From contig DXJF01000114.1 in NCBI GenBank assembly GCA_019057375.1, forward strand, positions 1 to 64,000: a stretch of 64,000 nt of DNA. The letters are read 5' to 3'. Made by a program: the position numbers and the translations under genes. Under the pieces are notes generated by a model. That model was not told where the DNA came from, ran no database searches, and saw only the letters and a program-made list of their open reading frames with translations. This DNA comes from Candidatus Heimdallarchaeota archaeon. GTDB taxonomy: Archaea; Asgardarchaeota; Heimdallarchaeia; Heimdallarchaeales; Heimdallarchaeaceae. Positions 30,316 through 49,747 of the stretch are shown here, piece after piece; position 1 is the stretch's first letter, and every line of letters starts with the position of its first letter.

Positions 30316-30352
30316 TTTATCATCTCTAAAAGTTACTAGGAGAGTTTTAAGA

Positions 30353-31903: not shown

Positions 31904-31920
31904 GAGCTTTACCTTTTTTA

Positions 31921-32523
31921 TTATATATTTTGATTATTTTCTTCTTCTGTAGCAAATTGAACTTGCACAGGTTTGATTTTTTCTAATAACTTTTCTTTTT
32001 CTTCCCAAGACTTAATGTGTCCGATATGGATTACTCTCTTCAACCATCTTAGAGCTTCAAGTTGAGAAGAGATATCGGGTATGTCAAATAGATTCCATAG
32101 TCTATCAGTAAGACGAATTAAAGAGAGATTCTCAATTAACTCTCCACGAGACAAAGCACCTTGGAGATTTGAGTTATATGCACAGATCGCAATTGGAAGA
32201 CTTTTTGTTTCAGAATCCCAAGCTATCTTTTCCCAGAAATAGTTTCTTTCGTGTTTTATCATTTCTTCTTTGGTTGCATCAATAAGATATAACAACCCTT
32301 CAAATGGAGTAAATTGCTTATGTTTGAATTTGAACCCTAAAGAATACGGTAATTCAGTTAGAGAACTATCTATTATGAATTCTGAGAGAGATGTATTAGA
32401 CCTCATCAGTAGAGTTCTGTTTCTAGTTGCTGGAGTATCATCACCCAAAATTAGTATAGATACTTCTGGGTAGCCTAGTTTTCTTCGAAGAGAACTTTTC
32501 AGATTCTGAATAAGGTTAGTCAT
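31921..32523 (-). CDS. Arf/Sar-like small GTPase-fold protein lacking P-loop
   Basis: GLLYLIDAT...LPIAICAYNSNLQGALSRGELIENLSL..LTDRLW mirrors the Arf C-terminal half; GxxxxGK and NKxD are degenerate. Confidence 0.6.
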   Translation of the reverse strand: MTNLIQNLKSSLRRKLGYPEVSILILGDDTPATRNRTLLMRSNTSLSEFIIDSSLTELPYSLGFKFKHKQFTPFEGLLYLIDATKEEMIKHERNYFWEKIAWDSETKSLPIAICAYNSNLQGALSRGELIENLSLIRLTDRLWNLFDIPDISSQLEALRWLKRVIHIGHIKSWEEKEKLLEKIKPVQVQFATEEENNQNI

Positions 32524-32629
32524 TGGGTTTCGTTAAAAAGCAACTTATGTGCATCTTTATCAATTTTTTGAATAAGAAGTTTTTAGAATAAGAGTAAAAG
32601 TTTAGAACTTCAATAAAAATGAAATAGTA

Positions 32630-33124
32630 ATGAGTCAAAAAATCCTAAACATAGTTGTCGCAGGTATTGAGCACAATAACAAGTGGTTGTTTATCAAACG
32701 TGAAAGAGGAGATTATCAGAAGAAATGGGCTTTAGCAGGGGGGAAAATGCATTTTGATGAAACAATAAAAGAATCAATTTTAAGAGAAATTAAAGAAGAA
32801 ACGGGTTTAGAAGTAGAGTGGGTAGGAATTAAATCCATCCTAAATGAAAAACTCAAAGAGAAAGATTCTGGAGAAACAACACAACATTTCATTATTATTT
32901 TATGTTTAACAAAAGCAAAGAGTGATGATGTCATAAAAACAGAAGAAGGAGAATTATGCTGGTTCACTGAACAAAAAATCAGAGATAATAAAGATAAGAT
33001 CATCCCCTCCGATTATCATATGATAACAAATTTGATTATGAAAGAATCATTAAACCAGATTGTTGAAGTGGAACTATTAAAAAAAGAAGATGAATTATCT
33101 CTTGGTTTATTTGAAGAATATTAA
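32630..33124 (+). CDS. Nudix hydrolase
   Basis: Nudix box GGKMHFDETIKESILREIKEETGL. Confidence 0.9.
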   Translation: MSQKILNIVVAGIEHNNKWLFIKRERGDYQKKWALAGGKMHFDETIKESILREIKEETGLEVEWVGIKSILNEKLKEKDSGETTQHFIIILCLTKAKSDDVIKTEEGELCWFTEQKIRDNKDKIIPSDYHMITNLIMKESLNQIVEVELLKKEDELSLGLFEEY

Positions 33125-34074
33125 TTAATTATTTTCTCAAATTCCTTTGAACTTATTTTAGAACCACTTAAAACAAGAACTACTTCTCGTCCTTGAAATT
33201 TCTCAATCTTTTGGATGAATGATGCAACAGACAATACCGCAGCGCCCTCAACTATCAGTTTGTGTTCTTTGAAAAGCAACCTTAATGCGTTTTTAATTTC
33301 CTCTTCTGAAACCATAATGTACTCATCTACATATTTTTTGCAAAAATCGAAAGTAATAGAATCGGGTTCGATCCCTCCAGCAGTTCCATCAGATAATGTA
33401 GGTTTTGATTCGTAATCTATTATTCTTCCTGCTTTAATTGATTCATACATTACTGGAGAATTAATTGGTTGGCACCCAATGATTTCAACTTCCCCAAATT
33501 TACTCTTCAAATAGCTTGCAATGCCTGAAATCAAACCTCCTCCTCCGATGGGAATTAAAACAAAATCTGGTTTCCTTAATTGTTTCTCTAATTCCATTCC
33601 TATAGTCCCTTGTCCCGCTATGATTTTCAAATCGTTATAGGGAGAGATAAACTCTATCATGTTTTTCTTAGCATATTCACGTGCAAATGTTTCTGTTTCA
33701 ACACAATCATTTCCGTAAAGTTCTATCTTTACATTCTGCTCTTCTAATGCTTTAATCTTAGTTTGGGATGCATTTTTAGGTAGAAATATTATTCCTTTCA
33801 ATCCCAAAATATCAATTCCATGAGCGAATGCTGCTCCATGGTTTCCAGATGAAGCAGTTATGAACTCACCTTTACTTTCTGTAGTACAAAGGAAGATCAG
33901 ACTATTCATAGCTCCTCTTATCTTAAAAGAACCAGTTACCTGTTGATTCTCTAATTTGAGATATACTTTGCAATTTCCCATTCTACTTAGAACTGGAGAG
34001 AACTCTAAGGAGGTCTCTTTAATATATGGTCTAATCCTCTCTTCAGCTTCTTGAATTTCTCTAAGTATATCCAT
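33121..34074 (-). CDS. Threonine/serine dehydratase (PLP, fold II)
   Basis: ENQQVTGSFKIRGA, SSGNHG and PIGGGGLISG. Confidence 0.9.
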   Translation of the reverse strand: MDILREIQEAEERIRPYIKETSLEFSPVLSRMGNCKVYLKLENQQVTGSFKIRGAMNSLIFLCTTESKGEFITASSGNHGAAFAHGIDILGLKGIIFLPKNASQTKIKALEEQNVKIELYGNDCVETETFAREYAKKNMIEFISPYNDLKIIAGQGTIGMELEKQLRKPDFVLIPIGGGGLISGIASYLKSKFGEVEIIGCQPINSPVMYESIKAGRIIDYESKPTLSDGTAGGIEPDSITFDFCKKYVDEYIMVSEEEIKNALRLLFKEHKLIVEGAAVLSVASFIQKIEKFQGREVVLVLSGSKISSKEFEKIIN

Positions 34075-34283
34075 TTGTTTCTAAAAGATAATCTCCGATT
34101 TCTATATAAACTTTAAATCTAATCTTCTGATTCTCAATCATCATCTTTTTTGGGGTAAATCTGAAGAGAATTAGTCAAGGAAACTAAAACCAAATATTTT
34201 GGAAATATCATTACAAGTAAAGATTTAAACACCTTCTAGATTTTTCGAGAAAAGGTTTTTACTGAAAAACGAAATGATATACT

Positions 34284-35354
34284 ATGGCAACTAGTTCTTC
34301 TAATGTTTTAAATGAAGGTATTATTACCACTAGAAAAGAAAAAAAAGCGGTACAAAACAAAGCTTCTAGATATCTTTCCATTGATGTTTTCAGAGGTCTA
34401 GCAATAGTCGCAATGATTTTTGTTAATGTGATAGCTCCTTTCAATAAAGTCCCAGCATGGTCAAAGCACGCACTTGATTATGGCTTAACCTATGTTGATC
34501 TAGTTACTCCTTTCTTTATCTTTGCAATCGGCTTAACTTACACAATGTCTTTTAATCGCTATTTCGAAAAAAATGGTTGGTTTCAAACATTTCTAAGATT
34601 CTTACGAAGGTATGCAGCATTTTATGGCATGGGGATGATAGGAGCTATGTACTTCTTCACAGATAAAGGAATAGTTTTTTCTTGGGGGGTTCTACAAGCT
34701 ATAGGATTAGCAGGTAGTTTCACCTTATTCTTTCTAAAGTTTCCAAGAAGTGTGAGATTTGCGGTTGGTATTGGTTTATTAGTTGCATATCAATATATTT
34801 TGACTATACCTGTAGAAGTAGGTATAGATACTATATCCTTAGCTGATCTAAATTTAGATGATGTTCATGGTGGAATAATTGGAGGTATTGGTTTCTGTAT
34901 TCTACTGCTTTTATGTACAGCAATAATTGATGACTTTCGTAAAACAAACAAATGGTGGATTCTGGGTTGTGGGGGAATTTTTACTACAGCAGGAATTATT
35001 TTACATTTTGTTTGGAAATTAACAGGTTGGCCGTTATACGGGGGAATCTCCAAAGAGAGGGTCACCGCATCATATATCCTCCTCACAGTTGGATTAGGTT
35101 CAATTCTTTTCTGGTTGTTATGGTTTATCTATGATAAAAAACAGATTACGAAGAACAGAAGCATTTTACAACCAATTGGGAGAAATTCATTTTTTATCTA
35201 TATAATTCACCCCATAATGATTATGTTAACACAATTAATCTTACCAATCGACACCCACTTTGCACTTGTAATGTTTCTAGGAATAGTTAGTGTGGTTATT
35301 TTGTGGACTGTATCGTTCTTTCTTGATAAGAAGAAAATCTACATAATAATATGA
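34284..35354 (+). CDS. Heparan-alpha-glucosaminide N-acetyltransferase-like membrane protein
   Basis: RYLSIDVFRG, DLVTPFF and GVLQAIG motifs. Confidence 0.8.
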   Translation: MATSSSNVLNEGIITTRKEKKAVQNKASRYLSIDVFRGLAIVAMIFVNVIAPFNKVPAWSKHALDYGLTYVDLVTPFFIFAIGLTYTMSFNRYFEKNGWFQTFLRFLRRYAAFYGMGMIGAMYFFTDKGIVFSWGVLQAIGLAGSFTLFFLKFPRSVRFAVGIGLLVAYQYILTIPVEVGIDTISLADLNLDDVHGGIIGGIGFCILLLLCTAIIDDFRKTNKWWILGCGGIFTTAGIILHFVWKLTGWPLYGGISKERVTASYILLTVGLGSILFWLLWFIYDKKQITKNRSILQPIGRNSFFIYIIHPIMIMLTQLILPIDTHFALVMFLGIVSVVILWTVSFFLDKKKIYIII

Positions 35355-35367
35355 TAAATGAGGTATA

Positions 35368-36285
35368 ATGATGAAAGTAGTAGAAGATATTACACAACTC
35401 ATTGGAGAAACTCCCTTAGTAAAACTAGGAAGGCTCTTTCCAAACTCTGAAATTTTTGGCAAATGCGAATTCATGAACCCTTTAAGTGTAAAGGATCGTC
35501 CTGTTCTGCAAATCTTTAGTGATGCTGAAGAACAAGGTTTGATTAAGCCAGGAGATACTGTGATTGAATGTACAAGTGGAAACACAGGAATGGCAGTTTC
35601 TTTGATTGCAGCCATAAAGAATTACAAAGCAATTTTAGTCATGTCAGAAATACAAAGTATTGAACGACGCCAAATTCTTAGTGCTTTGGGAGCTGAATTG
35701 ATTCTGACACCTGCGGAATTAGGGACTGAAGGGTCCCGACAGAAATTAAAGGAATTATTAGAAGAAAACCCTGATTACTTTTATATAGGACAGCATGTGA
35801 ATTCTTCAAACCCCAAAGCCCATTATCTATCAACTGGTCCTGAACTATGGGAACAAACAGAGGGAGAGATAGATATTCTAATTGCAGGATTAGGTACAGG
35901 AGGAACAATATGTGGTGCAGGTAAATACTTGAAGGAAAAAAATCCAAATGTACAATTGATTGCAGTAGAACCTTTTGAATCACCTTATATCTCTAAGGGA
36001 ATATTCAAACCCCACAAAATAATGGGCACAGCACCAGGATTTGTACCTGAAACACTTGACAAGGATATAATTGATGAGATATTTCTGGTTAAACAAGCTG
36101 ATGCTTTTGAGATGTGTAGAAAAATGGCATTAATAGAAGGTATTCTAATTGGAATAAGCTCAGGAGCAGTATGTGAGGCAGCAAAACAAATTTCGAAAAG
36201 AGTAGAGAATAAGAAAAAGAAAATTGTTGTTGTTTTAGCGGATACAGGACAAAGATACTTGAGCGTGGAAGGATTATTTGTTTGA
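35368..36285 (+). CDS. cysK: Cysteine synthase
   Basis: IGETPLV, SVKDR, TSGNTG, GLGTGGT and DTGQRYLS. Confidence 0.92.
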   Translation: MMKVVEDITQLIGETPLVKLGRLFPNSEIFGKCEFMNPLSVKDRPVLQIFSDAEEQGLIKPGDTVIECTSGNTGMAVSLIAAIKNYKAILVMSEIQSIERRQILSALGAELILTPAELGTEGSRQKLKELLEENPDYFYIGQHVNSSNPKAHYLSTGPELWEQTEGEIDILIAGLGTGGTICGAGKYLKEKNPNVQLIAVEPFESPYISKGIFKPHKIMGTAPGFVPETLDKDIIDEIFLVKQADAFEMCRKMALIEGILIGISSGAVCEAAKQISKRVENKKKKIVVVLADTGQRYLSVEGLFV

Positions 36286-36298
36286 TTTAAAAGAGGAG

Positions 36299-36321
36299 TG
36301 GTGGGGCAGGGCGGATTCGAA
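36299..36321 (-). pseudogene. 3' fragment of an intronless tRNA-Val(GAC) (allele A): T-loop to CCA
   Basis: Minus strand TTCGAAT CCGCC CTGCCCC A CCA; T-stem CCGCC differs from the intact gene and complements GGCG of the 5' fragment. Confidence 0.85.
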
Positions 36322-36360
36322 TAGACTCCTTTAAAATGAGGGAAAGGAAGAGTTTTAAGA

Positions 36361-38328
36361 TTGAACGGTAAAATGTACGAGATGAAAGAGCAAAGAATTC
36401 TAGTATTTATTCTGGTATTCTATCTTACTTTAAATGTAAATATAATTAAAGCCAATAGAACTGATACTTTTCTCTTAACAACCACAAACACCTCTATTCA
36501 GGATAATAAAGCATCAACAGTAAGTCAAACCAGTTCATTGTTCATAGATGATGACTCTGATTTCATCACACTTAACTTCCCTGGAAGTGGAACAAAAGGT
36601 GACCCCTACTTAATTGAAAACTATCAAATCATCACCACTGGTAGAGAAGCAGGTATTGATATTCAGAATACAAGTAAACATTTCATTATTAGAAATTGTA
36701 CTATTGAAACTGACAGTTGGGGTATTCGACTAAATGAAATAGCTCCTAATACAGCATCAATCATTGATAATGAGTTCATAGATAATGATTATACAGCTAT
36801 ATCCATCTACAATTCAATTGGAGTTACAATTTCCAATAATAAATTCAAAAATAATGACGAAGCATTATACTTAAGGAAATCTAGTTTCTTAACTATATCT
36901 AACAATACGTTTGAAGAGAATTGGCATGGTTTGCTCACATCTGGAACTGATTCATTAATTATAGAAGACAACTTTTTCTATTCAAATGTAATTGCAATAA
37001 GCATTACAGCAGTTACTGGTTTTTGTATCAAAAATAATGTTTTTAAAAATAATTCCAGATACGGAATGAATCTATATGCAACAGACAACACACTGGTTTC
37101 GAATAATACATGCAGTGATAGTGGATGGCGAGGAATCCTAGTTCGTCAGTCGATGTTTGTTGTTTTAAACCATAACACTCTTACTAATGATGGTATCCAC
37201 ATTGATTATTACTCGGTAGAATATGGAAGTTTTTCAAATAATCAAGTCAATTCTAGAATTCTTGGATTTTTCAAAAATAAGAATGACTTAGAACTAAAAG
37301 ACCCAATTTATGGTCAGTTAATTTTGTCAGACTGTAAAAAGGGAACCATTTCTAATCAAAATCTCTCAAACACAAGCATTGGTATAACATTGTACAATTG
37401 TGAGAAGACCACCATAATAAATAGTACTTGTAACAATAATGACGGTGATGGAATCCAAATTCATAATTCTGATGGATGTTCAGTGAGTAATAACACTTGC
37501 AATAATAATGATAATGGGATCAGTGTTGTAAACTCAAATCATTGTAATGTATCGAATAATATCTTACTTGGGAATTGGGAGAGCATAGAATTAACAAAAT
37601 CTAACTCAGCAGAAATTAATCTAAACAAATGTTCATTTAACAAAAACCATGGAATAACAATAATAAATTCCGAATATGGATTTGTAACTAATAACAATTG
37701 TTCAGATAATCATAACGATGGAATTCGAATACTAAGTTCAAATTATTTCGTGATTGCTAACAACTCGTGTATAAATAACAGAGAGGAGGCAATTTACTTA
37801 ATAACAACTATTGTTTCTATTGTTTACAATAATCTCTGCAAAAATAACACAAACGGGATATACATCGGACATTCAGGATTTAGTCCTATTCCTGAATTTG
37901 TACCCCCACCTCCAGATTCATATTCGGAAGTAATTTCTAATCATCTTGAAGAAAATAGTAAATATGGAGTTTATCTTAATCGACTGACTCAGGATAACAG
38001 CATACATCATAATTCCTTCATTAATAATGGTGAGGAAGGAATAGCACAAGCTTATGACACAGGATATAGAAATACTTGGTTTGATAAGAAGACAAATGAA
38101 GGTAATTTTTGGTCTGATATGGGGACCGGATCTTATGAAATTGCAGGAGAAGCAAATTCAATCGACAAATATCCGCTAATGGAACCCAAAATGATAGAAA
38201 TGCCGGAAATTCCATCAAATTGGCCAACTTACAGAACTAAATCTAATCCACAAATAATATGCATAGGAATAGTGACATTAGTTATTCTGAAACGTAGAAA
38301 ATTAAGATTTAAAAGAAGAAAAATCTAA
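36361..38328 (+). CDS. Right-handed parallel beta-helix (NosD/CASH-like) secreted surface protein
   Basis: Signal peptide (likely start 36382); GSGTKGDPYLIEN; Asn-rich PbH1 repeats; GNFWSD; TM plus basic tail. Confidence 0.85.
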   Translation: MNGKMYEMKEQRILVFILVFYLTLNVNIIKANRTDTFLLTTTNTSIQDNKASTVSQTSSLFIDDDSDFITLNFPGSGTKGDPYLIENYQIITTGREAGIDIQNTSKHFIIRNCTIETDSWGIRLNEIAPNTASIIDNEFIDNDYTAISIYNSIGVTISNNKFKNNDEALYLRKSSFLTISNNTFEENWHGLLTSGTDSLIIEDNFFYSNVIAISITAVTGFCIKNNVFKNNSRYGMNLYATDNTLVSNNTCSDSGWRGILVRQSMFVVLNHNTLTNDGIHIDYYSVEYGSFSNNQVNSRILGFFKNKNDLELKDPIYGQLILSDCKKGTISNQNLSNTSIGITLYNCEKTTIINSTCNNNDGDGIQIHNSDGCSVSNNTCNNNDNGISVVNSNHCNVSNNILLGNWESIELTKSNSAEINLNKCSFNKNHGITIINSEYGFVTNNNCSDNHNDGIRILSSNYFVIANNSCINNREEAIYLITTIVSIVYNNLCKNNTNGIYIGHSGFSPIPEFVPPPPDSYSEVISNHLEENSKYGVYLNRLTQDNSIHHNSFINNGEEGIAQAYDTGYRNTWFDKKTNEGNFWSDMGTGSYEIAGEANSIDKYPLMEPKMIEMPEIPSNWPTYRTKSNPQIICIGIVTLVILKRRKLRFKRRKI

Positions 38329-38334
38329 AGAGTA

Positions 38335-38443
38335 TGGTGGGGCAGGCAAGATTCGAACTTGCGACTTCCTCCACTTTTTGTCTGTAGGTTTTCCACCTTG
38401 CAGATGTCAAGGAGGTATCATAGCCAAGCTAGATCACTGCCCC
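38335..38443 (-). tRNA. tRNA-Val(GAC) (allele B) with 31-nt intron (38375-38405), probably at 36/37; CCA encoded
   Basis: Full cloverleaf GGGGCAG...CTGCCCC A CCA; intron hairpin TCTG/CAGA plus AGGT/ACCT; relaxed BHB. Confidence 0.92.
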
Positions 38444-38478
38444 TTTTGCCGATAAGCTTTTCGCCTACTTTTCTTTCC

Positions 38479-38504
38479 TTGTTTTCTTTAAATGTTTTTT
38501 GTTA
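38479..38504 (-). promoter_or_regulatory. tRNA promoter block (BRE/TATA-like) of allele B
   Basis: 25/26 identical to 40745-40770 at the same distance (36 vs 37 nt) from the tRNA 5' end. Confidence 0.65.
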
Positions 38505-38641
38505 TCCAGCTCTTTTAGTCAAGTAGACAAATTCGCAGAAAACATGGACAAGCTAGCCATATCCTTTGCAAGAAGTATAAACAGACAACAGAGAGGAAAA
38601 ACCCATCATAACAGAAGATTTTATCGAGTTTAAAAACCATT

Positions 38642-40594
38642 TTGTGGATATTGTTACTGAGTGAATTGGTCACACAAGCAACAAGTAAAACTCAAACAAT
38701 TATGTCTCCCTCGTCAAAGGGAGTGATGAGAAGTTATCAGGTGGTGCTCAAGTGTATAGACCAATCCCAAAGAGAAGAGATTAACCAGAGAATAAAAACA
38801 TTAGAAGAACAACAAAATCAGCTACTCACCCCTCAAGTTGTCAAGCAAGCAGTAGAACTCTATAGAACCAATCCCAAAGAAGGATTTTTCACACGCCAAC
38901 TCTGCAAAAAAGTAGGGAAAAGTCCAAATATTGCAGAAAGTGCTTTCCACTGGTTATACATAGCTATCAAAGGAAAGATAGATAAGGAGAAGAAAGTGGA
39001 AGGGTTATTGAGCTTTCTTTTGAAAAATCCTCAACAGCTGATAGAATGGCTGATTTTTGGTCGTTCCCCTTATACTGAGCGAAGTTTAGAAAACTATTGG
39101 AGACTAAAAAGAAAATATATCATTAACCTCCTCACCAGTACTAGATCCAAAACTGATTCCTATTGGAGAAAAAAACACAAACACAACTATTTTGCTGACT
39201 TCCTACAATTCAACGACTCCCTTCCTTTTACGTCACAAACTGATATCCTCCAAGCTCTTGATGATGCGCTGTTTTACTACAATCATGAATTTTCTCTCAT
39301 CCCACAGCTTACCAAAAATCAGAAAGCATTTCTGAAAAAACTCCAACTCTTAAAGAAGGAACAAAAAACTGTAGTACCTTTTCTCACTTCATGGATCAAA
39401 GGTCCTCAAACTTCTCGATGGAAAAGTCTCAAAACTCTCTCCGAACAACTAGCTTCAATTATAGGCAAACCTTCTCGAAAACTCTTTTCAGTAGTTAGAC
39501 TGATAATTGTTTTCACACTCTTTGATCATTACATGCAGAGTGTCCCTCAGTTAGTTAAGGCTCTCCCTATTGCTAATGTTGTTCCCCTACCATTTAAACG
39601 AAAAAAGAAAGGAAGATTACCAATCAAATTGCTAATGAAGAAAAACTATGTTATCACCCGTCAAGGGAATGCTCAAGAATTGACTGATCAGGTAAAAAAA
39701 CAAGGATGGACGGAATTTTGTTTTCCGCAAAAGGGAAAACAGCGACTAACAGCTCAAGTTCACTTTCCTAAAAAAGTAATAGGGTATATTGGAAATGGTG
39801 CACACTTCAAAGTCTTCCAAGTAAGTAGTGGACAAGCTCCTAGTTTCAAACCTAGGGTGGATGTGGTACTCGAAGGAGCTCATGCTTGCTTCCATTCATC
39901 CAAACTTCTTCACCGTTATCTTGCTAATGTTTCTGCAAAGAAAGCTTCTATTCTTGGAGTAGATATTAACCGCTTAGGACAGTATATGGTCGTGTTTAAC
40001 ACCCCTATCCCTCTGCCTCCAGATTTACTAAACTTAGCAGCACACTATAAACATCTCAGCACAAAAGTTCTGGATGAGTTGAACACAGGTTTTCTCCGTA
40101 AAAGAAAAGAGTATGATTCCCACGGGTGTTGTAAACTTAAAGGTGAACTTGACCGTGTTTATACTCGTCGCAGCCGCATCCTTCGCGAAATCACTTATCT
40201 CCTCCCCCACTTTCTTGCTGCAGTAATGGTGAAAAAGAAGTGTAAAGTGTTAAAGATTGAACGTTTAACTGTTGATCCTACCGGCACCAGAGGAGCTTTA
40301 GCTAAAGCTATTTACACCATGCCCGATAGTTTGTTCATTTACAAAAAAGCAGTGTGGTTAGCTTCTTTGGAGTTAGGGTATGATGTGCAGTTAGAAGCAG
40401 TTCACCCATATCATACCAGCACCATTCATTACGGATGTGGAGGTCTTCTTACTCGTCAAAAAGGTCAGTATGATGTTGCTCCTTGTAAAAAGTGTGGTCA
40501 AAAGGTCCCTACTCATGCTAATGCTGCCAAAAATATTGCTTCCCTTCAAGGTATCTTTCTTCCTCCCGATTCCTTCCCCTCAACGCACGTGTAG
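38642..40594 (+). CDS. tnpB: Large TnpB/Cas12f-like RuvC protein (likely start ATG 38702, 630 aa)
   Basis: RuvC-I ILGVDIN, RuvC-II VLKIERL, HPYHTS-x-HxxC...CxxC zinc finger, RuvC-III THANAAKNI. Confidence 0.85.
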   Translation: MWILLLSELVTQATSKTQTIMSPSSKGVMRSYQVVLKCIDQSQREEINQRIKTLEEQQNQLLTPQVVKQAVELYRTNPKEGFFTRQLCKKVGKSPNIAESAFHWLYIAIKGKIDKEKKVEGLLSFLLKNPQQLIEWLIFGRSPYTERSLENYWRLKRKYIINLLTSTRSKTDSYWRKKHKHNYFADFLQFNDSLPFTSQTDILQALDDALFYYNHEFSLIPQLTKNQKAFLKKLQLLKKEQKTVVPFLTSWIKGPQTSRWKSLKTLSEQLASIIGKPSRKLFSVVRLIIVFTLFDHYMQSVPQLVKALPIANVVPLPFKRKKKGRLPIKLLMKKNYVITRQGNAQELTDQVKKQGWTEFCFPQKGKQRLTAQVHFPKKVIGYIGNGAHFKVFQVSSGQAPSFKPRVDVVLEGAHACFHSSKLLHRYLANVSAKKASILGVDINRLGQYMVVFNTPIPLPPDLLNLAAHYKHLSTKVLDELNTGFLRKRKEYDSHGCCKLKGELDRVYTRRSRILREITYLLPHFLAAVMVKKKCKVLKIERLTVDPTGTRGALAKAIYTMPDSLFIYKKAVWLASLELGYDVQLEAVHPYHTSTIHYGCGGLLTRQKGQYDVAPCKKCGQKVPTHANAAKNIASLQGIFLPPDSFPSTHV

Positions 40595-40654
40595 GGGACC
40601 CATTCAAACGACGGTTAAATAGCCTCTGCAAGTTTAACCAAGTTTCATAACGTG
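40573..40654 (+). repeat. Element right end / 3' part of omegaRNA scaffold
   Basis: 82-nt repeat shared with 8488-8569; hairpins CCCCT/AGGGG and GGTT/AGCC conserved, with changes in the loop. Confidence 0.85.
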
Positions 40655-40708
40655 CGCCGACTTCCTCCACGTCAAGGAGGTATCATAGCCAGGCTAGATC
40701 ACTGCCCC
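40655..40708 (-). pseudogene. 5' fragment of intronless tRNA-Val(GAC) (allele A), truncated in the T-stem
   Basis: GGGGCAG TG ATCT AGCCTGGCTA TGAT A CCTCC TTGACGT GGAGG AAGTC GGCG, then the element end. Confidence 0.9.
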
Positions 40709-40744
40709 CTTTTATTGATAGGTCTTTCTTCGTTCTCTTCTTTC

Positions 40745-40770
40745 TTGTTTTCTTTAAATATTTTTTGTTA
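40745..40770 (-). promoter_or_regulatory. tRNA promoter block of allele A
   Basis: Minus strand TAACAAAAAATATTTAAAGAAAACAA; homologous to 38479-38504. Confidence 0.65.
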
Positions 40771-41057
40771 CAAATCTATGTTTCACCAATATTTGATATT
40801 TCTCTCTTTTTGGTTCATTAAAATCTTCTTTTTTTTCATTCTAATTATTAATTTGGTTTCTTCTAATTTGCTCGTTTTCTTTAATATTTCCCCCTTAAGA
40901 TACCATTTTGTCAAACTTTCGTTTTTTTCCGACTCAAAATCATATTCCAATCCTTGTTTCTTTTTTCAATATCACTAGGTAACATTTATAAAAACTTCAG
41001 CAGACAATCTATCAAAGGAATAGTGTTAAACTATTCTGTCCACTCGAGTGATTTATT

Positions 41058-43673
41058 ATGGATAAAAGTGTAGCAATGTCTTTAAAAATCGTTGGTTTTC
41101 TCCTTATTCTTACTTCTGCCTGGGTACCTATATATACAATTACATTTGATTCTACAACAACTGAACCTGAACCAATTATTCTTGTTGGTTCTCAGAGCAT
41201 TACTGGAGTCCTTCATAATGTATATTACGAAAATAATCTAGCATTTGTAGTAGATTCAGATACAGGGTTAAATATTGTAAATGTAACTGATGCAACAACA
41301 CCTGAGATTATTGGGACATACAATATTGCAAATGGGGCCAATGGTATATTCGTGAAGGATAACTATGCTTACATTGCAGATACGGTCACAGGATTACAGA
41401 TTGTTAATATTACTGACCCTACTTCACCAACACAAGTTGGTACATATAGTATTACAGGAGGGGCCACTGATGTATTTGTATCAGGAAATTATACTTACAT
41501 TGTAGATTCAACAATAGGGTTTCAAATACTAAATATTAGTGACCCAACAACACCAACACAAGAGGGTGTATTTAGTATTTCAGGGGAAATAAACAGTTTA
41601 ATTGTAAAAGATGAATTCGCATATATTGTAGATTCAGTAACTGGTTTACGTATTCTAAATATTACTGACGCAACTTTACCAAGCTTGGTTGCAACCTTCG
41701 ATGTAAACGAACCAGTATATGATGTAGCTGTTTTAGGAAGTTATGCTTACATTGTTGGTGAAAATATTGGCATACAAGTAGTAAATATAAGTAATCCTCA
41801 ATCTCCCGTTCTCACTAGTTCTTATTATATTGAAGGAAATGTCAATGGAATACATATTGAAAATGAACATGCATATATTGTTGATTCGACTGTTGGAATA
41901 CAAATTGTTTCAATTATAAATCCAGAAGAATTAACTATTGTAGGCTCACAGGAAATTACAGGAGAGATATATGGAATATTCGTAAAAGATGGATATGCAT
42001 ATGTTGTAGGATCAGATCTAGAAATCTTTATAGTAAGACCCAGATCTGAGTATGATTCATCAGGTACACTAGTACGAATCTTCGGTTTCAAAATCGATTA
42101 TAAAATGTTAACTTACAGTAGTGCAAACAACCTCGCTCAAGAACGATTCTTGGAAGCAGAAACACCCAGTAGTGTTGTTATTCTTGCTGCAGCTTTGTGG
42201 TTTATACTAATCTTTGCTACAGCTGCTGTTGTTTTGGGTCAGGTTTTTCAAAGTGGTGGTTTCAAATCGAGGGGCACTATTGCAGATATTGCTGCAGGAA
42301 TTCTTTTACTTTTGGCTCTGGTAGTTGCTATTTTATCAATGAGCAGATCAATGATTATAGCAGCAGAAAGATACCAAGCTTTAGTAACGGGACAAACTGC
42401 AGCCTCAACGGTGCCTCTTACGTTTAACCCGAATGATTCTACACCAGCTTACTTTGACATTGGTTTAACAGGTTCAGTTGGACCAGGATTCTACATATTC
42501 ACCATTGGAATATTAATGATGGTAACTGGTATCTTTCTACCAGTCAATTGGCAACAACCAACCAGCTCCAAAATGTCAAGAAGAATTGGTGATACTGGTG
42601 TTCTTAGATGGGTTAAAAACATAGCATCATTAAGATTAACTACTTATGTTACTAGAAGATTATTAACACTTATTCCTCTCTTCATTGCAATATGTGTGAT
42701 GACATTTGTAATGGTAAACGGAATGGGTGACCCAGTTGCATTATTGCTACTTGGAAAACAAAGAGTAACGGAACAAGATAGGATAAATCTTACTAAAAAA
42801 CTTGGTCTAGATCAGCCCATTTATATTCAATTCGTTACTTGGTTCTATAACCTTATACGAGGGGACATGGGTATAAGTTTCCAATCAGGTCAATCAATTA
42901 ATAATATGATTGGTGGATTAATTTGGGAAACTTTAAAGCTTCAGTTAGCATCATTTGTGCTAGCTTTGCTTATTTCGATACCTTTGGGTGTTTTAGCAGC
43001 AAAGAATCAAAATACTTGGATTGACTCAGCTGCAAGTTCTTTCGCACTCTTAGGTCTCTCAATGCCAATTTTTGTGTTTGGTTTATTAATGATTTATATA
43101 TTCAGCGGATATGGTTTAGGATGGTTCCCAGCTGCAAAAGCTCACCGAATACCAGCGCCCACGCCTGTGTTTAGTCAGACGAACTGGCAATTATTCTGGT
43201 CAGGGCAGTGGGGAGGTGTTGGTGGATTTTGGAATAATGTAGGTGTAAGATTAGGGGATTCACTCCTTCATATGGCTTTACCAACTATAACTTTGACATT
43301 TGCTTTCTTAGCCCTATATACTAGGTTAGTTAGGGCAACAATGCTTGAAGTTCTTAGACAAGATTATGTCTTATCTGCAAGAGCAAATGGAATATCTGAA
43401 AGAACCATTACATGGAGACATGCATTCAGAAATGTTTTGATCCCTGTAGTAACCTATGTTGGGTTGTTTATGGCTACAGCTTTAGCTGGAGCTCCAATTA
43501 CTGAAACACTCTTCACATGGCCGGGTTTAGGATTCAAATATGTAGGTGCGGTGCTTCTTTTGGACTTCCCGATGGTCTTAGGTACGACGGCGATTCTGAC
43601 TTTACTTATCTTACTAGGTAACTTGATAACAGATATTGCTTATGTTGCGGTAGATCCGCGTATAGAACTATGA
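41058..43673 (+). CDS. Fusion: 4-TM domain with inserted LVIVD repeats plus OppB/DppB-type ABC permease
   Basis: About six LVIVD repeats (YAYIAD..TGLQIVNITDPT.P); C-terminal GLDQPIYIQF...LARANG.SE.TI..RHAFRN...DIAY..VDPRI. Confidence 0.85.
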   Translation: MDKSVAMSLKIVGFLLILTSAWVPIYTITFDSTTTEPEPIILVGSQSITGVLHNVYYENNLAFVVDSDTGLNIVNVTDATTPEIIGTYNIANGANGIFVKDNYAYIADTVTGLQIVNITDPTSPTQVGTYSITGGATDVFVSGNYTYIVDSTIGFQILNISDPTTPTQEGVFSISGEINSLIVKDEFAYIVDSVTGLRILNITDATLPSLVATFDVNEPVYDVAVLGSYAYIVGENIGIQVVNISNPQSPVLTSSYYIEGNVNGIHIENEHAYIVDSTVGIQIVSIINPEELTIVGSQEITGEIYGIFVKDGYAYVVGSDLEIFIVRPRSEYDSSGTLVRIFGFKIDYKMLTYSSANNLAQERFLEAETPSSVVILAAALWFILIFATAAVVLGQVFQSGGFKSRGTIADIAAGILLLLALVVAILSMSRSMIIAAERYQALVTGQTAASTVPLTFNPNDSTPAYFDIGLTGSVGPGFYIFTIGILMMVTGIFLPVNWQQPTSSKMSRRIGDTGVLRWVKNIASLRLTTYVTRRLLTLIPLFIAICVMTFVMVNGMGDPVALLLLGKQRVTEQDRINLTKKLGLDQPIYIQFVTWFYNLIRGDMGISFQSGQSINNMIGGLIWETLKLQLASFVLALLISIPLGVLAAKNQNTWIDSAASSFALLGLSMPIFVFGLLMIYIFSGYGLGWFPAAKAHRIPAPTPVFSQTNWQLFWSGQWGGVGGFWNNVGVRLGDSLLHMALPTITLTFAFLALYTRLVRATMLEVLRQDYVLSARANGISERTITWRHAFRNVLIPVVTYVGLFMATALAGAPITETLFTWPGLGFKYVGAVLLLDFPMVLGTTAILTLLILLGNLITDIAYVAVDPRIEL

Positions 43674-43690
43674 TAAACAGGTGATATGAG

Positions 43691-44968
43691 TTGCAAAAAG
43701 CTAAGAAAACACAAAAAGGGTCTTTTTCTAAAAGACTTGATAATTACTTAGTGGAAAAAAGGTTACCAAGATCTATGTCTTGGGCTGGAGCACTCGCTGT
43801 GCTCTGGCAGCACTACTACCTTAACTATATCATACAATTCTTAGGGATTATCTTAATATTTGGAATTGGATTACCATATGGTCTTAGAGCATTCGGAGTT
43901 TCCATGAGTGTAGACGGTGTTCGACTAGGACCAATTGGATCTCCATTCGCATATCTTATCTATATAGGAATCGTAGCATTAGTATGGGTTGGTGTAAAGG
44001 TAGGTTGGAGATATTACCAGAAGGTAACTGGTAAGAAAGAAATGATTATTGCAAAAGATGGAACTCTTCGAGAAAGAAGTCCTTCTCAATGGACACTTGT
44101 TTGGAGAAGATATAAGAAAAACAAAGTTGCAGTCTTATCTGCTACTCTCGTAGTTGGAATCACAATTCTGGCAATTACTTATCCAATCTTGATGCCCTTT
44201 AGCCCTGTAGGAACTTCCCCCCTGTTTGATGCATGGAATGGAGGTGGTTCTTTAGCTAATCCAAATCTAAAGTATCCTGGAGGAACAGATATTCTTGGAA
44301 GAGATGAATTCTCAAGGTTACTTGCTGGTAGTGAAGTTTCCTTAACTGTAGGATTATTCTCAACTGTGATGTCTGTTCTAATAGGAGTAACATTAGGTGC
44401 CCTTGCTGGATACTATAGAGGATGGACTGAAGAAATTATTATGAGAATTACAGACATGTTTCTCGCTCTACCATTTCTTGTAATAGCAATTCTAGCAGTT
44501 TCATTCATCAGAAGAGGAAGATTAGTTTTTTTGAGACGGATACCACAATCAATAGTTATTATTATTGTACTAGGAATATTTGGTTGGGCAGGACTATGTA
44601 GGTTAGTCACAGCTAACACGAAGCAGATTTACAACTTAGATTATGTAAATGCTGCAAGAGTATTAGGAGCAAGTAATCGGAGAATCATTTTAGTCCATAT
44701 ACTACCGAATATTTTAGCTCCTATCATTGTTATTGCCACAATATCCATTGCAGGAGGAATTCTCTCAGAAGCAGGATTAACCTTTTTAGGTTTAGGAAGT
44801 CCAACAACGATTTCTTGGGGACAGATGGTTAATGAAGCACAAACGGTTCTTAAAACGAACCCAGAATTAGCGCTTCTACCAGGATTCGCAATATTCTTTG
44901 TAGTACTGGCATTCAACTTGCTAGGAGACGCATTAAGAGATGCGCTAGATCCAAGATTAAGAGAGTGA
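43691..44968 (+). CDS. oppC: Oligopeptide ABC permease OppC/DppC
   Basis: GTDILGRDEFSRL, EAA-like YVNAARVLGAS and GDALRDALDPR. Confidence 0.9.
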   Translation: MQKAKKTQKGSFSKRLDNYLVEKRLPRSMSWAGALAVLWQHYYLNYIIQFLGIILIFGIGLPYGLRAFGVSMSVDGVRLGPIGSPFAYLIYIGIVALVWVGVKVGWRYYQKVTGKKEMIIAKDGTLRERSPSQWTLVWRRYKKNKVAVLSATLVVGITILAITYPILMPFSPVGTSPLFDAWNGGGSLANPNLKYPGGTDILGRDEFSRLLAGSEVSLTVGLFSTVMSVLIGVTLGALAGYYRGWTEEIIMRITDMFLALPFLVIAILAVSFIRRGRLVFLRRIPQSIVIIIVLGIFGWAGLCRLVTANTKQIYNLDYVNAARVLGASNRRIILVHILPNILAPIIVIATISIAGGILSEAGLTFLGLGSPTTISWGQMVNEAQTVLKTNPELALLPGFAIFFVVLAFNLLGDALRDALDPRLRE

Positions 44969-44972
44969 TACA

Positions 44973-46007
44973 ATGGCACAAAATAAAAAAATACTAGACG
45001 CACGAAATATTTACACATACTTCTATACTGAGAGCGGTGTTGTTGAAGCCTTAGATGGTGTTTCCTTCGATGTTAATTATGGTGAACCTGTAGGTATTGT
45101 TGGAGAATCAGGCTGTGGTAAAACAGTCACTGCTCACTCCACTTTACGTATCTTACCTAAAAATGGTAAAACTGTTGCTGGTGATATAATCTACAAGGGT
45201 GTTAACCTTCTTGATTTACCTGATCTTCAAATGAGAAGGATACGTGGTAAAGAAATTGCTATGATTTTCCAAGATCCTATGACAAGCTTGAATCCAATTT
45301 TCAAAGTATCAGATCAGATGACTGAAGTTATTGCTTTGCATAGAAAATGCAATAAGAAAGAAGCTTTAGAGATTGCTATTGAAACTCTTGATCAAGTAGG
45401 AATTTCCGAAGCTGAAAAACGTATTACTGATTATCCTCACCAATTTAGTGGAGGAATGCGTCAGAGAATTCTCATAGCCAGAGCACTTGCTCTTCAACCC
45501 AGTCTTTTGATTGCTGATGAACCTACAACTGCTTTAGATGTTACAATTCAAGCACAGGTTCTTGAAATCATCAAAGAGATGCAAAAAAAACTAGGGTTAG
45601 CTATGATGCTCATTACTCACAATCTTGGAGTTGTTGCAGAGACTACAAAGCGAGTTCATATTTTCTATGGTGGTCGTGTCGTTGAATCTGGACCAACAGA
45701 AGAGATATTCCTTGATCCCAAACATCCATACACATATGCACTCTTTGAAAGTATTCCATCTCTGGAAAAAGACAAGACACGTCTTGAAACGATTCCTGGT
45801 AATGTACCAAGATTGATTAATCCTCCAAAGGGATGTCGTTTCCACCCGAGATGTAAATATGCAACTGAAATTTGTTCTCGTGTTCGACCTCCTGAATTTA
45901 AGTTTGGCAAGGGTCGTCGTGTTGCTTGTCATCATTTCGAGGAACTAGATTTGCATATAGATATGGAATCTATACGTGAGAGTAAGGCTATAAAGGAGGA
46001 AGCATGA
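44973..46007 (+). CDS. oppD: Oligopeptide ABC ATPase OppD/DppD
   Basis: GESGCGKT, YPHQFSGGMRQR and C-terminal GCRFHPRC. Confidence 0.93.
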   Translation: MAQNKKILDARNIYTYFYTESGVVEALDGVSFDVNYGEPVGIVGESGCGKTVTAHSTLRILPKNGKTVAGDIIYKGVNLLDLPDLQMRRIRGKEIAMIFQDPMTSLNPIFKVSDQMTEVIALHRKCNKKEALEIAIETLDQVGISEAEKRITDYPHQFSGGMRQRILIARALALQPSLLIADEPTTALDVTIQAQVLEIIKEMQKKLGLAMMLITHNLGVVAETTKRVHIFYGGRVVESGPTEEIFLDPKHPYTYALFESIPSLEKDKTRLETIPGNVPRLINPPKGCRFHPRCKYATEICSRVRPPEFKFGKGRRVACHHFEELDLHIDMESIRESKAIKEEA

Positions 46008-46008
46008 A

Positions 46009-47046
46009 ATGACAACGCTTGAAGAATATGAAACAATTGATCTCTTCTCTAATTGGGACCAAAAAACACAACCTATTATAACAATTGATAACCTAAAGAA
46101 ATGGTTTCCTGTAAGTCAACAGTCAGTCCTTTTCTCTCGAGTGGTTGCAAATATTAAGGCTGTTGATGGGGTAAACCTATTTCTTAACAAAGGTGAAACT
46201 CTGGGTCTAGTTGGTGAATCAGGCTGTGGTAAAAGTACAACAGCCAGAGTTATTGTCAAGTTAGAAAAACCTACTGAGGGTTCTATTTATTTCAAAGGAA
46301 TAGACATCTTCCAACCTATGTCTCGTGAAGAAGAACTAGCAGTTAAACGTCAATTACAGATGGTTTTCCAAGATCCTTATTCCAGTTTGAATCCAAGGAG
46401 AATGGTTCTTGATTTAATCAAAGAGCCTTTTGATATACATTATCCAGATATGCTCTATGAAGAAAAAGAATCAAGAGTCCTTGAAATTCTTGCAAAGGTA
46501 GGATTAGAAGATTACCATGCTTTAAGATATCCTCACGAATTCAGTGGTGGTCAAAGACAAAGATTAGGGATTGCAAGGGCTTTAGCAATTCACCCAGAAG
46601 TAATTTTGTTAGATGAACCAGTTTCAGCTCTTGATGTCTCTGTGCAGGCACAAATCCTGAATCTTCTACATGACTTGCAAAAGGATTTCGATCTAACTTT
46701 CATGTTTATTGCACATGATCTCAGTGTTATCAAACATGTCTCAGATAGAGTAGCAGTAATGTACCTAGGAAAAATCATGGAAATGTGTCCAACAGGAGAA
46801 TTGTTTCGTAAGACAGCTCATCCCTATTCAGTATCTTTGCTTTCAGCTATTCCTCGTCCAGATCCTCGTATAAAAATGGATCGTATAATTCTTGAGGGTG
46901 ATGTTCCAAGTGCAATTAATCCTCCTACAGGATGTCCATTTCACCCAAGATGTTACAAGGCTCAAGAGATATGCTCAAAAGTTACTCCTCAATTAGAAGA
47001 ACTAGAACCAAATCACTACGTTTCATGTCATTTTCCAGAAATTTAA
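46009..47046 (+). CDS. oppF: Oligopeptide ABC ATPase OppF/DppF
   Basis: KAVDGV, GESGCGKST, YPHEFSGGQRQR and GCPFHPRC. Confidence 0.93.
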   Translation: MTTLEEYETIDLFSNWDQKTQPIITIDNLKKWFPVSQQSVLFSRVVANIKAVDGVNLFLNKGETLGLVGESGCGKSTTARVIVKLEKPTEGSIYFKGIDIFQPMSREEELAVKRQLQMVFQDPYSSLNPRRMVLDLIKEPFDIHYPDMLYEEKESRVLEILAKVGLEDYHALRYPHEFSGGQRQRLGIARALAIHPEVILLDEPVSALDVSVQAQILNLLHDLQKDFDLTFMFIAHDLSVIKHVSDRVAVMYLGKIMEMCPTGELFRKTAHPYSVSLLSAIPRPDPRIKMDRIILEGDVPSAINPPTGCPFHPRCYKAQEICSKVTPQLEELEPNHYVSCHFPEI

Positions 47047-47132
47047 TTTGTTACTTTTTTCTTTTCTTTTTATTTTTGAATTAACTCTGAACAATAGAGA
47101 GTTTTTTAACTTTCTTAGGTAACAACCCCATA

Positions 47133-47711
47133 ATGCACGTGTCACAATATTTCAAGAAACGAACTTATACTTTCAAAGCATTCAGGCGAGACGTTTCAAA
47201 AATATTTAGAAATAGATCTCAGATTAGAGAATCTAGGAAAACAGAAAGATTGTCTCCACAGTTCAGAGAGCGAATTATGTTAGCAGTAACAGCTGTTAAT
47301 GGTTGTAGATATTGTGAGTGGGGTCACACAAAAGCAGCATTAAATCTTGGGTGTACAGAAGAAGAAATAGAACAGATTATGAAACACGATTTCGGTTCTT
47401 GTGACCCTGATGAAGTTATAGGTCTTGCTTATGCCCAACATTATGCTGAATCAGGTGGATCACCAGCAGAAGACGCAAAACAGAAATTATTGGAATTTTA
47501 TGGTGAACAGAAGGCTCGAGACATTCAACTATACATAGATATGGTTACAATAGGGAACTTACTTGGAAATACAGTAGATGCTTTTGAAAGTAGACTAAAG
47601 GGTTTACCACCAGAAAATGGATCGTTTCTATTTGAGTTGTTACTCTATTCCTTAGGTTTTCCTTTTGTTATTATCTTCAATAGAAAAGAGAAAAAGAAAC
47701 GTAAAAATTAG
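47133..47711 (+). CDS. Carboxymuconolactone decarboxylase/AhpD-like protein
   Basis: RERIMLAVTAVNGCRYCEWGH. Confidence 0.85.
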   Translation: MHVSQYFKKRTYTFKAFRRDVSKIFRNRSQIRESRKTERLSPQFRERIMLAVTAVNGCRYCEWGHTKAALNLGCTEEEIEQIMKHDFGSCDPDEVIGLAYAQHYAESGGSPAEDAKQKLLEFYGEQKARDIQLYIDMVTIGNLLGNTVDAFESRLKGLPPENGSFLFELLLYSLGFPFVIIFNRKEKKKRKN

Positions 47712-48742
47712 TAGCCTTCTTCAAGATTTACCTCATTCAAGAATTTCTTCTTACCTTTTGCAAATCTACGTAAATTTTCTATTTGTTCATCCCATCTTTT
47801 TAGATCACCCATAGGTGATGCACCTCTATGAGGGGACACAATGACATTGTCTAGTTCATGAAAAGGATATGAGGAAGGATATTTTTTCCCTTTGTCATCT
47901 TCTTCTGGTTGATAATTGTACCAAACATCGATAGCAGCACCAGTTATTTTGCTTTCCTTCAGGGCTTCAAATAAACTCTTCTCTTCAATGATTGGTCCTC
48001 TACCTATATTAACAAGTAAACTATCTTCTCCCAGTAAGTCAAGTTCTTTTTCTTGGATTAAACCTTCGGTTACAGATGTTAAAGGTAAGGCAACAACTAG
48101 AATATCAATTTCTCTTAGGAATTTCGGAAGATCCTCAAAAGAATACTGCTCTGCAGGAGTGACTAAAGGTTCCATTTGTTTGCTCCAATTATTTCTTAGA
48201 ATGGAAAAATCGATATCGAATCCAGACAGAAAAGTGTGTACTAATCTATTAACTGCTCCATATCCTAGTAAACCTACTTTTCTTCCACGTAGAGGTATAG
48301 AAGTAGCAAATGAATCGCCTCGTCTCCAATGACCCTCAACCATCCAATTATGGTGAAGAATAACCTTGTTCATTAGAGCCAATAAGATTGCTACAACATG
48401 TTGTGCAGTAAAGTAGGCATTACCATGTCCATTGACTAAAGTTATCTTTCTATTTGTTGTTACTTCTCTGAAAAGAGGAACAAGATGTTGTACTCCTGCT
48501 CCTGGATTAATGAAAAGTTGAAGCTTGGTAGCTGCATTAAGTAATTCTTTAGAGGGACGCCACCCCATTATTATATCAGCTTCTGGAACAAGTTCTAGCA
48601 AATTTTGTTCAGAAAGATCTTCAGGAAAAACTAGATTGACATTGGGATATCCTTTTAGTCCTTCTTCCAGATAATTTCTTAAAATATCGTTTGGTTTCCA
48701 GATACAAAGAACACTTACTTCTTTTTCACTCATTATTGACAT
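47708..48742 (-). CDS. D-isomer 2-hydroxyacid dehydrogenase
   Basis: GLLGYGAV, LVNIGRG, AAIDVW and SPHRG. Confidence 0.9.
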   Translation of the reverse strand: MSIMSEKEVSVLCIWKPNDILRNYLEEGLKGYPNVNLVFPEDLSEQNLLELVPEADIIMGWRPSKELLNAATKLQLFINPGAGVQHLVPLFREVTTNRKITLVNGHGNAYFTAQHVVAILLALMNKVILHHNWMVEGHWRRGDSFATSIPLRGRKVGLLGYGAVNRLVHTFLSGFDIDFSILRNNWSKQMEPLVTPAEQYSFEDLPKFLREIDILVVALPLTSVTEGLIQEKELDLLGEDSLLVNIGRGPIIEEKSLFEALKESKITGAAIDVWYNYQPEEDDKGKKYPSSYPFHELDNVIVSPHRGASPMGDLKRWDEQIENLRRFAKGKKKFLNEVNLEEGY

Positions 48743-48862
48743 GAAAAGATTACTTGATTTTAACCTTTAGTTTATAACTGCCTATGTATCTTACTAATTG
48801 ATAACTAGAAGAGTGTATGAAAATGTCAAGGGTAAAGATATCTGTTATTAAAAATAGTTCAG

Positions 48863-49720: not shown

Positions 49721-49747
49721 ACTATTTGTGAATCAAATGTCATTTAG

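Follow-up and report, generated by a model that had tools for sequence, protein, structure and literature searches.

The locus considered here raises the question of whether an unusually long TnpB-like protein, in which a histidine stands at the place of the third catalytic aspartate of the RuvC domain, is still a nuclease or has become a binder of nucleic acids. The open reading frame (ORF) lies at positions 38642-40594 of the forward strand of a 64,000-nt stretch of DNA (hereafter the window) from Candidatus Heimdallarchaeota archaeon (GCA_019057375.1, contig DXJF01000114.1, positions 1-64,000, forward strand). Typical TnpBs are reportedly ~400 amino acids (aa) long, and RuvC-inactivated TnpBs (TldR) are said to act as RNA-guided repressors or binders. 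An earlier interpretation made from the letters alone (the sequence-only reading) had left two possibilities, i.e., a variant nuclease clade or an RNA-guided binder. The family-wide histidine, the predicted RuvC fold and a context like that of OMEGA (obligate mobile element-guided activity) systems support the first of these, and the second is disfavoured. We consider it likely that the ORF encodes the TnpB of an IS607-family insertion sequence specific to the Heimdallarchaeia, that is, a transposon-type OMEGA system with a His-type RuvC-III motif.

Predicted fold and catalytic motifs

From a TTG at 38642 the ORF runs uninterrupted through 650 codons, and the real start is probably the TTG at 38666, with a product of 642 aa. 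This codon is TTG, GTG or ATG in all seven close copies from the same genome, the frame downstream of it survives an in-frame 3-nt deletion in locus L003, and the resulting length is the commonest among the homologs. Besides, the start at 38666 would give a nearly leaderless product, as it lies ~30 nt past a conserved TTTAAA(A/T)A box (38629-38636, forward strand), which is kept in nearly all loci at a fixed distance of ~2025-2030 nt from the right end of the element and is a probable archaeal TATA element of tnpB. An alternative start is the ATG at 38726 (622 aa), which is preceded by GGAG. Depending on the start, the protein measures 622-650 aa, in line with the ~630 aa given by the sequence-only reading.

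An AlphaFold2 model built on 22 homologs (mean predicted local distance difference test, pLDDT, of 83) is predicted to adopt the WED-REC-RuvC-TNB fold of TnpB. Foldseek ranked Cas12f and TnpB ternary complexes first, with E values from 5e-9 to 5e-6, and VIA-align gave Z scores of 11.7-13.5 to Cas12f and TnpB structures over 330-350 aligned residues (model residues 28-640), including 11.7-11.8 to ISDra2 TnpB (8h1j) and ISFba1 TnpB (8iaz). The model contains the RuvC fold that the sequence-only reading had presumed, and the long N-terminal insertion noticed at the same time corresponds to an all-helical region, residues 41-313, inserted after the first WED strand and before the WED barrel. According to the model, the oversize is an enlarged REC lobe of ~270 aa and not a foreign domain.

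The catalytic residues occupy the canonical places of the three RuvC motifs in the model, at the codons where they had been read from the letters. The RuvC-I aspartate D441 (LGVDINRLG; 39962-39964, forward strand) ends the model strand 437-442, and the RuvC-II glutamate E540 (KIERL; 40259-40261, forward strand) ends the strand 536-540. The RuvC-III position is held by H625 (CAT, 40514-40516, forward strand), which follows the zinc finger and opens the helix 624-634 within V-P-T-H-A-N-A-A-K-N-I. The D-E-D triad of RuvC is absent from this protein, and its place is taken by a D-E-H that is found throughout the family. The zinc finger, or TNB insert (H596-x2-C599...C615-x2-C618; 40427-40495, forward strand), lies between RuvC-II and RuvC-III; its first knuckle is the H596-Y-G-C599 already pointed out as HYGC and its second is C615-K-K-C618, so that the finger is of the HCCC type. 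In alignments based on the family profile, H625 falls opposite the D of N-A-D-x-N-A-A in three solved Cas12f chains, and H596, C599, C615 and C618 fall opposite the four zinc cysteines of AsCas12f. The AsCas12f residue opposite H625, counted from the alignment, is D401, which we take to be the RuvC-III catalytic aspartate.

The histidine across the family

A word-indexed search retrieved 124 relatives, nearly all of 620-650 aa, and the named sources among them are all Heimdallarchaeota, Heimdallarchaeaceae or Hodarchaeales, which points to a family confined to the Heimdallarchaeia. In an alignment of 22 sequences with 37-85% identity (alignment A1), D441, E540, H596, C599 and C615 are invariant, and C618 and H625 are conserved in at least 90%. 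H625 is present in 21 of the 22, the sole exception being a protein with an apparently frame-shifted C-terminus. There is no conserved aspartate within five residues of H625, and the x of H-x-N-A-A is variable (A, D, F, K, S, I or E). All 11 copies in the genome of the window carry the histidine within the motif N-T-H-x-N-A.

An exhaustive profile search of 1.84 billion representatives returned 271 clusters, and this small number indicates that the family is far from mainstream TnpB. Residue counts from this search refer to the matches listed. At the position of H625, the 121 covering clusters have H in 114, Q in five and D in two; the position of D441 is D in all 104 covering representative clusters, and that of E540 is E in 106, D in 17 and H in one. 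At the first zinc ligand, 106 clusters have H (HCCC) and 17 have C (CCCC). A sister set of longer proteins combines D-D-H with a canonical CCCC finger.

Since the histidine is present in the copies of the same genome, in the aligned homologs and in most of the clusters, we regard it as a signature of the clade and not as a private mutation or lesion. The sequence-only reading had considered a private GAT>CAT change as the other possibility; the close homologs do not carry D.

Five distant relatives of 1200-1800 aa (P0146, P0157, P0177, P0179 and P0228) have a TnpB-like module with D-E-H or D-D-H at their C-terminus, and the N-terminal 600-1100 residues of these giant proteins have no Pfam match. 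Two of them, P0177 and P0179 (Hodarchaeales, 1669-1784 aa), show weak MazE/AbrB-like matches in the middle of the protein.

A guide RNA scaffold that ends at the right end of the element

Conservation across ~55 loci reaches ~62 nt past the stop codon, to a sharp limit at …AACCAAGTTTCATAACGTG-Y-R-T (also written ...CATAACGTG-YRT), after which each copy is unique. The core of the putative guide RNA (omegaRNA) scaffold, delimited by a 60-locus alignment and its covariation, spans 40575-40657 on the forward strand and comprises three helices. P1 (TCCCCT/AGGGGA) pairs 40575-40580 with 40593-40598 across the stop codon, P2 (GGTTAGAC/GTTTAACC) pairs 40613-40620 with 40632-40639, and a pseudoknot joins the P1 loop (ACGCACGT, 40583-40590) to the last 8 nt of the element (ACGTGCGT, 40650-40657).

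In the 60-locus alignment, 93.9% of the cells of this three-helix model are paired and eight pairs show double changes, a combination reached by none of 500 shuffles and by no slid register. Compensatory changes support the pseudoknot and P2, with pair counts in the pseudoknot such as CG51/UA5/AU1 and GC44/AU8/GU6, and RNAalifold recovers P1 and P2 independently. All three helices are intact in the window copy. The scaffold probably reaches further 5' into the ORF, and no Rfam family matches the 3' RNA. Judged by its sequence, the anatomy is that of a TnpB omegaRNA, with a structured 3' scaffold that stops at the right end and is followed by a variable guide, which in the window copy would start at 40658.

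In locus L094 (A2 row, 545-774), the P1 loop CACGTGCGTTG is the reverse complement of the usual loop, with no change at the end of the element. It seems that the loop was inverted between the two P1 arms, which would break the pseudoknot in this copy.

Target site and guides

The motif ACYGT is conserved just outside 23 left ends, and the sequence further out is unrelated. The element-free site of one copy from the genome of the window (L002) was found in a relative (L107, GCA_030638525.1), where the neighbouring protein with a metallo-beta-lactamase (MBL) fold is 94% identical to that of the L002 locus. The empty site reads …CTAGTTGG-ACTGC|TAACTTTTATTAATG… (in short form, ACTGC|TAACTTTTATT). 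The occupied site has …CTAGTTAG-ACCGT|AGACTACTGAGG… at its left junction and …CATAACGTGCGT|TAACTTTTATTAATG… at its right junction, which, with LE and RE for the left and right ends, shortens to ACCGT|LE ... RE-GCGT|TAACTTTTATT. From this pair it follows that the 5-mer, ACYGY, is part of the target and lies immediately next to the DNA matched by the guide. ACYGY is at the position of a transposon-associated motif (TAM) and is our candidate for it. The last two bases of the 5-mer are present at both junctions, as expected for the crossover dinucleotide of a serine recombinase. The right end reads TGCGT and not ACCGT, so that the occupied site would be spared.

The 20-nt guides of eight copies from the genome of the window match perfectly only at their own flank, all other matches having at least three mismatches, and scanning the genome with these eight guides gave no sign of any being aimed at host genes. 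The DNA just past the right end would supply the guide of each copy, and the target of a copy would be the element-free version of its own insertion site, i.e., the 5-nt TAM ACYGY, whose last two bases would be the crossover dinucleotide, followed by the sequence that matches the guide. By analogy with characterised TnpBs, the complex would cut this site after excision, and the element would then be copied back.

Transposon context and copies of the element

The window's genome (3.47 Mb, 89% complete) holds 11 copies of the family, and 78 loci were found across ~20 metagenome-assembled genomes (MAGs) of Heimdall archaea, many of them at contig ends. More than 20 loci have a conserved tnpA 3' end just upstream of tnpB. 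In two of them (L024 and L036), the upstream gene encodes a 196-aa protein with a MerR-type helix-turn-helix (HTH) and a resolvase domain, which reaches 164-170 bits with NF033518, the model for the IS607 family transposase (cut-off of 110). Full-length copies accordingly have an IS607 tnpA directly upstream of tnpB. Short forms have a conserved left end, …ACTGArGnGTGAAAACTTAyCCAATCTTACC…, directly before tnpB.

The sequence-only reading had stated that no tnpA is nearby. This does not hold, as the window copy is preceded by the 3'-end remnant of an IS607-family tnpA (serine recombinase; 38525-38612, forward strand) with ~70% identity to the last ~90 nt of tnpA in L024, L036 and L018. The remainder of this tnpA is missing, and the remnant is fused to sequence from upstream of a tRNA gene; a left-end motif adjoining the window tnpB was not found. 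With only ~90 nt of tnpA left, the window copy cannot move by itself and is non-autonomous. No Y1 TnpA (PF01797) was found in the window's genome. Four PF00239 resolvase genes were considered and set aside: they are located on different contigs, and none is the cognate IS607 TnpA.

The copies are under purifying selection, with a ratio of nonsynonymous to synonymous substitution (dN/dS) of ~0.13; pairwise values among copies, within-genome paralogs included, are 0.12-0.17 at dS 0.27-1.3. An ORF of more than 600 aa is kept in 43 of 49 loci.

Three further paralogs in the window's genome (L008-L010, on contigs C47, C12 and C117) are intact, with 39-45% identity and N-T-H-x-N-A-A kept, and have no AACCAAGTTTCATAACGTG right-end motif. 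They presumably form a second subfamily with an RNA scaffold of its own.

The window copy and its tRNA-Val surroundings

The predicted guide of the window copy, CGACTTCCTCCACGTCAAGG (40658-40677, forward strand), consists of the first 20 nt past the right end. It runs antisense to an intron-less tRNA-Val(GAC), where it covers the anticodon arm and the variable loop. A search of the genome for a second match to this 20-mer within three mismatches found none. The guide lies in the 5' fragment of a disrupted gene for this tRNA (40658-40708, reverse strand), which is followed by its own upstream/promoter region to ~40770; the junction between element and fragment is ambiguous within 40655-40658. 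A 108-aa ORF at 40652-40978 has no family match and overlaps the tRNA fragment and its T-rich upstream region, and was therefore treated as spurious.

A tRNA-Val 3' fragment, from the T loop to CCA, is located at 36299-36321 on the reverse strand. The CCGCC of its T stem is complementary to GGCG in the right-hand 5' fragment, and the 3' fragment is followed by TAGACT, resembling a left-end junction. Between the two fragments lie a beta-helix gene (36361-38328), an intact tRNA-Val(GAC) with a 31-nt intron (38335-38443, reverse strand; Rfam tRNA 49.3 bits, ARAGORN in intron mode) and the tnpB element. Apart from this intact gene, the assembly yielded no tRNA-Val(GAC). The 5' part of the gene, together with ~75 nt upstream, forms a direct repeat of ~110 nt with the right-hand fragment (38406-38504 and 40671-40770, 85% identity).

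When the intron-less gene is rebuilt, it reads …ATTCGA-ACCGC|CGACTTCC…, i.e., a TAM-like 5-mer followed by the match to the guide. In the intron-containing tRNA-Val(GAC), the intron ends the match to the guide after only 13 nt and ACTTG takes the place of the 5-mer, and with such a match and such a 5-mer the resident gene should escape cutting. The intron-less allele specified by the guide is nowhere intact in this genome.

A relative (L104, Logan SRR12623519 contig) has the same gene order and a beta-helix protein that is 93% identical. It contains the tRNA 3' fragment (5917-5939) and the intron-containing tRNA (region 7960-8120), and both tnpB and the 5' fragment are absent. An event across the ~110-nt direct repeat separates the two states, and it fits either an insertion or a deletion. 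The right-hand repeat copy of the window is closer to the sequence of L104 (~90%), and the left-hand upstream copy is at ~74%. A larger element of 4.3 kb, with its left end at 36322 and the beta-helix gene and the intron-containing tRNA as cargo, was considered and rejected: its junction, TTCGAA|TAGACT, is three bases short of the expected GAACCGT|AGACT, and L104 has the same junction without tnpB.

Considering these surroundings, it is quite possible, if not the explanation that we favour, that the window copy is an inert relic, immobilised by the loss of tnpA and of a proper left end, targetless and not yet decayed. The ~90-nt tnpA remnant, a left-end motif that does not adjoin tnpB, a guide with no other genomic match and a close relative that has the same neighbourhood without tnpB are all consistent with this, and other copies in the same genome are indeed broken (L004 is interrupted and L011 is a fragment). 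On the other hand, the ORF is open over 650 codons, the promoter box, the catalytic residues, the zinc ligands and every omegaRNA helix are intact, and dN/dS to the nearest relatives is 0.13, a pairwise value that cannot isolate the terminal branch. In the explanation that we favour, the copy can no longer move alone, yet it has kept its ORF, promoter box and omegaRNA intact, and its guide specifies the intron-less tRNA-Val(GAC) allele.

Other tRNA genes adjoin copies of the family as well. In the same genome, the only other tRNA-Val detected (CAC) is located divergently just upstream of another copy (L005, C145:89208-94133), whose right flank is again the 5' part of a tRNA-Val, truncated within the anticodon loop. 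Each of the two tRNA-Val genes detected thus adjoins a family copy whose guide is a tRNA-Val fragment; the ARAGORN count for the assembly is only 20 tRNAs. A further case is L052 (4514-4530, Heimdallarchaeota MAG CSMAG_2326), whose right end is immediately followed by GCCCCACCA, a tRNA 3' end that runs in the same direction. With L005 and the window copy (L001) included, three of the ~55 right-end flanks are tRNA sequence, which is far above the tRNA share of the genome. Downstream of the element, the first opp permease gene of the window (41058-43673) encodes 871 aa, with LVIVD repeats fused before the OppB domains. Its counterpart in L104 (8414-10177) is called at only 587 aa, so that either the fusion or the start call differs.

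Nuclease or RNA-guided binder

Several observations count against the assignment to an active, transposon-borne TnpB and have to be weighed here. The window protein scores 22.9 bits against Pfam PF07282, below the cut-off of 26.3 bits, and 10 bits against NCBIfam guided_TnpB, below the cut-off of that family, both matches being C-terminal. The position of the TAM rests on one pair of empty and occupied sites and on the junction consensus. The genome, which is 89% complete, yielded no cognate IS607 tnpA. Near-identical copies were sought, and no pair exceeds 92% identity, even within one genome, which means that recent transposition is not demonstrated; the loss of near-identical repeats during MAG assembly may explain the lack of such copies. 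Finally, a literature search found no experimental paper or cleavage data on any His-type TnpB.

In spite of this, the D-E-H site is, in our judgement, probably that of an active nuclease variant. OMEGA systems depend on cutting the element-free site, and D, E and H are fixed across deep divergence. The histidine would take over the role of the aspartate as metal ligand and leave the site catalytically competent. Histidine is a metal ligand in RNase H-fold nucleases, e.g., in the DEDH tetrad of Argonaute PIWI domains.

The opposite view, that the histidine abolishes cleavage and that the family consists of RNA-guided DNA binders with a role in regulation or targeting, similar to TldR, Cas12k or Cas12m, appears unlikely to us. 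It can draw on the missing RuvC-III aspartate, on the cognate tnpA not found in this genome, and on copies that have long stayed intact (dS 0.3-1.3, dN/dS ~0.13), none of them recently moved, which could mean a function at the level of the host. Against it, D441 and E540 do not vary, and the residue at the third position is specifically histidine, an accepted metal ligand in this fold, in 114 of the 121 covering clusters. The linkage to IS607 TnpA, the left and right ends and the TAM at insertion sites have all been kept, and the guides are arbitrary flanks with no second genomic target. Inactivated lineages, besides, lose several catalytic residues together with the transposon context (PMC10691335), and a repressor-like binder is made unlikely by the fact that a His-type class has already been catalogued (Altae-Tran et al. 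2023, PMC10691335).

That the protein is a type V CRISPR effector similar to Cas12f and not a transposon TnpB is highly improbable: its best structural matches are Cas12f chains, its size is within their range and its best NCBIfam match is Cas12f2, yet with 16 bits against a cut-off of 450, and no tandem repeat or CRISPR array was found in window positions 30000-50000 (the sequence-only reading, too, had noted no array nearby), the single Cas1 match in the genome is on another contig, the one 3' scaffold ends at the transposon end, and full copies have an IS607 TnpA upstream.

A bolder proposal, to which we give little credence, is that the histidine site gives this Asgard clade a chemistry different from that of Asp-type TnpBs (e.g., a preference for Mn2+, nicking or an altered choice of strand), and that long-lived immobile copies are kept because they act for their locus, here by excluding or converting incoming intron-less tRNA-Val(GAC) alleles. 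If true, this would be a direct case of a tRNA intron shielding a gene from the nuclease of a mobile element.

Overall, the clade shows all the hallmarks expected of a functional RNA-guided system carried by a transposon. His-type TnpBs have so far been catalogued only by computation, and the family described here provides a defined test case, with a protein, a scaffold, a scaffold/guide boundary and a candidate TAM. Such a case could show whether and with which metal a D-E-H site cuts, and it is of interest for RuvC chemistry and for compact genome editors. In addition, the family marks the traffic of mobile elements in the Heimdallarchaeia, the archaeal group closest to eukaryotes.

Comparison with known systems

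The family resembles the TnpB-omegaRNA systems of IS607 and IS605 elements (ISDra2, ISFba1) in its predicted WED-REC-RuvC-zinc finger architecture, in a scaffold that overlaps the gene's 3' end and runs to the right end of the element, with the guide taken from the flank, in a candidate TAM on the left-end side of the target and in its IS607 serine-recombinase partner. It differs from them in its length of ~640 aa compared with ~400, which is due to the helical REC of ~270 aa in the model, in the histidines that replace the RuvC-III aspartate and the first zinc ligand, and in having diverged so far that the TnpB models of Pfam and NCBIfam score below cut-off.

Cas12f is similar in size and in structure (Z of 12-13.5, Foldseek E of ~5e-9), and the NADxNAA-type context of its RuvC-III motif reads NTHxNAA in the family. 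Unlike Cas12f, the family has no CRISPR array or adaptation genes, lies in a transposon context and has histidine for aspartate. With TldR and other nuclease-dead derivatives of TnpB it shares descent from TnpB and an altered RuvC-III. TldR-type proteins are characterised by a broader loss of catalytic residues, by immobile single copies in a fixed host context and by guides to host promoters, whereas the family has 11 copies in this genome, variable flanks, linkage to TnpA and guides that match only their own flank.

A further parallel is found among the six TnpB branches with altered RuvC-III (RIIIr-4 and five others), including a change of D to H, that were described by Altae-Tran et al. 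(2023, PMC10691335). Several of these rearranged branches are almost exclusively archaeal, and a conserved RuvC-III change was argued there to imply retained activity. As in RIIIr-4 and related branches, the RuvC-III aspartate is replaced in the family by a histidine conserved across the branch, and the weak MazE/AbrB-like matches in P0177 and P0179 echo the His-type TnpBs that were linked to MazE or ribbon-helix-helix (RHH) genes in the same study. According to that study, RIIIr-4 has no C4 zinc finger, is in part carried by viruses and is linked to RHH/MazE genes. Compared with that description, which is the basis on which the two are set side by side here, the family keeps a zinc finger (HCCC, and so not strictly C4) and a link to IS607 TnpA, and has no MazE or RHH neighbour at this locus, the weak MazE matches being found only inside its giant distant relatives. 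The His-type RuvC class is thus already known, and the family in the Heimdallarchaeia is a further instance of it and not a new kind of enzyme.

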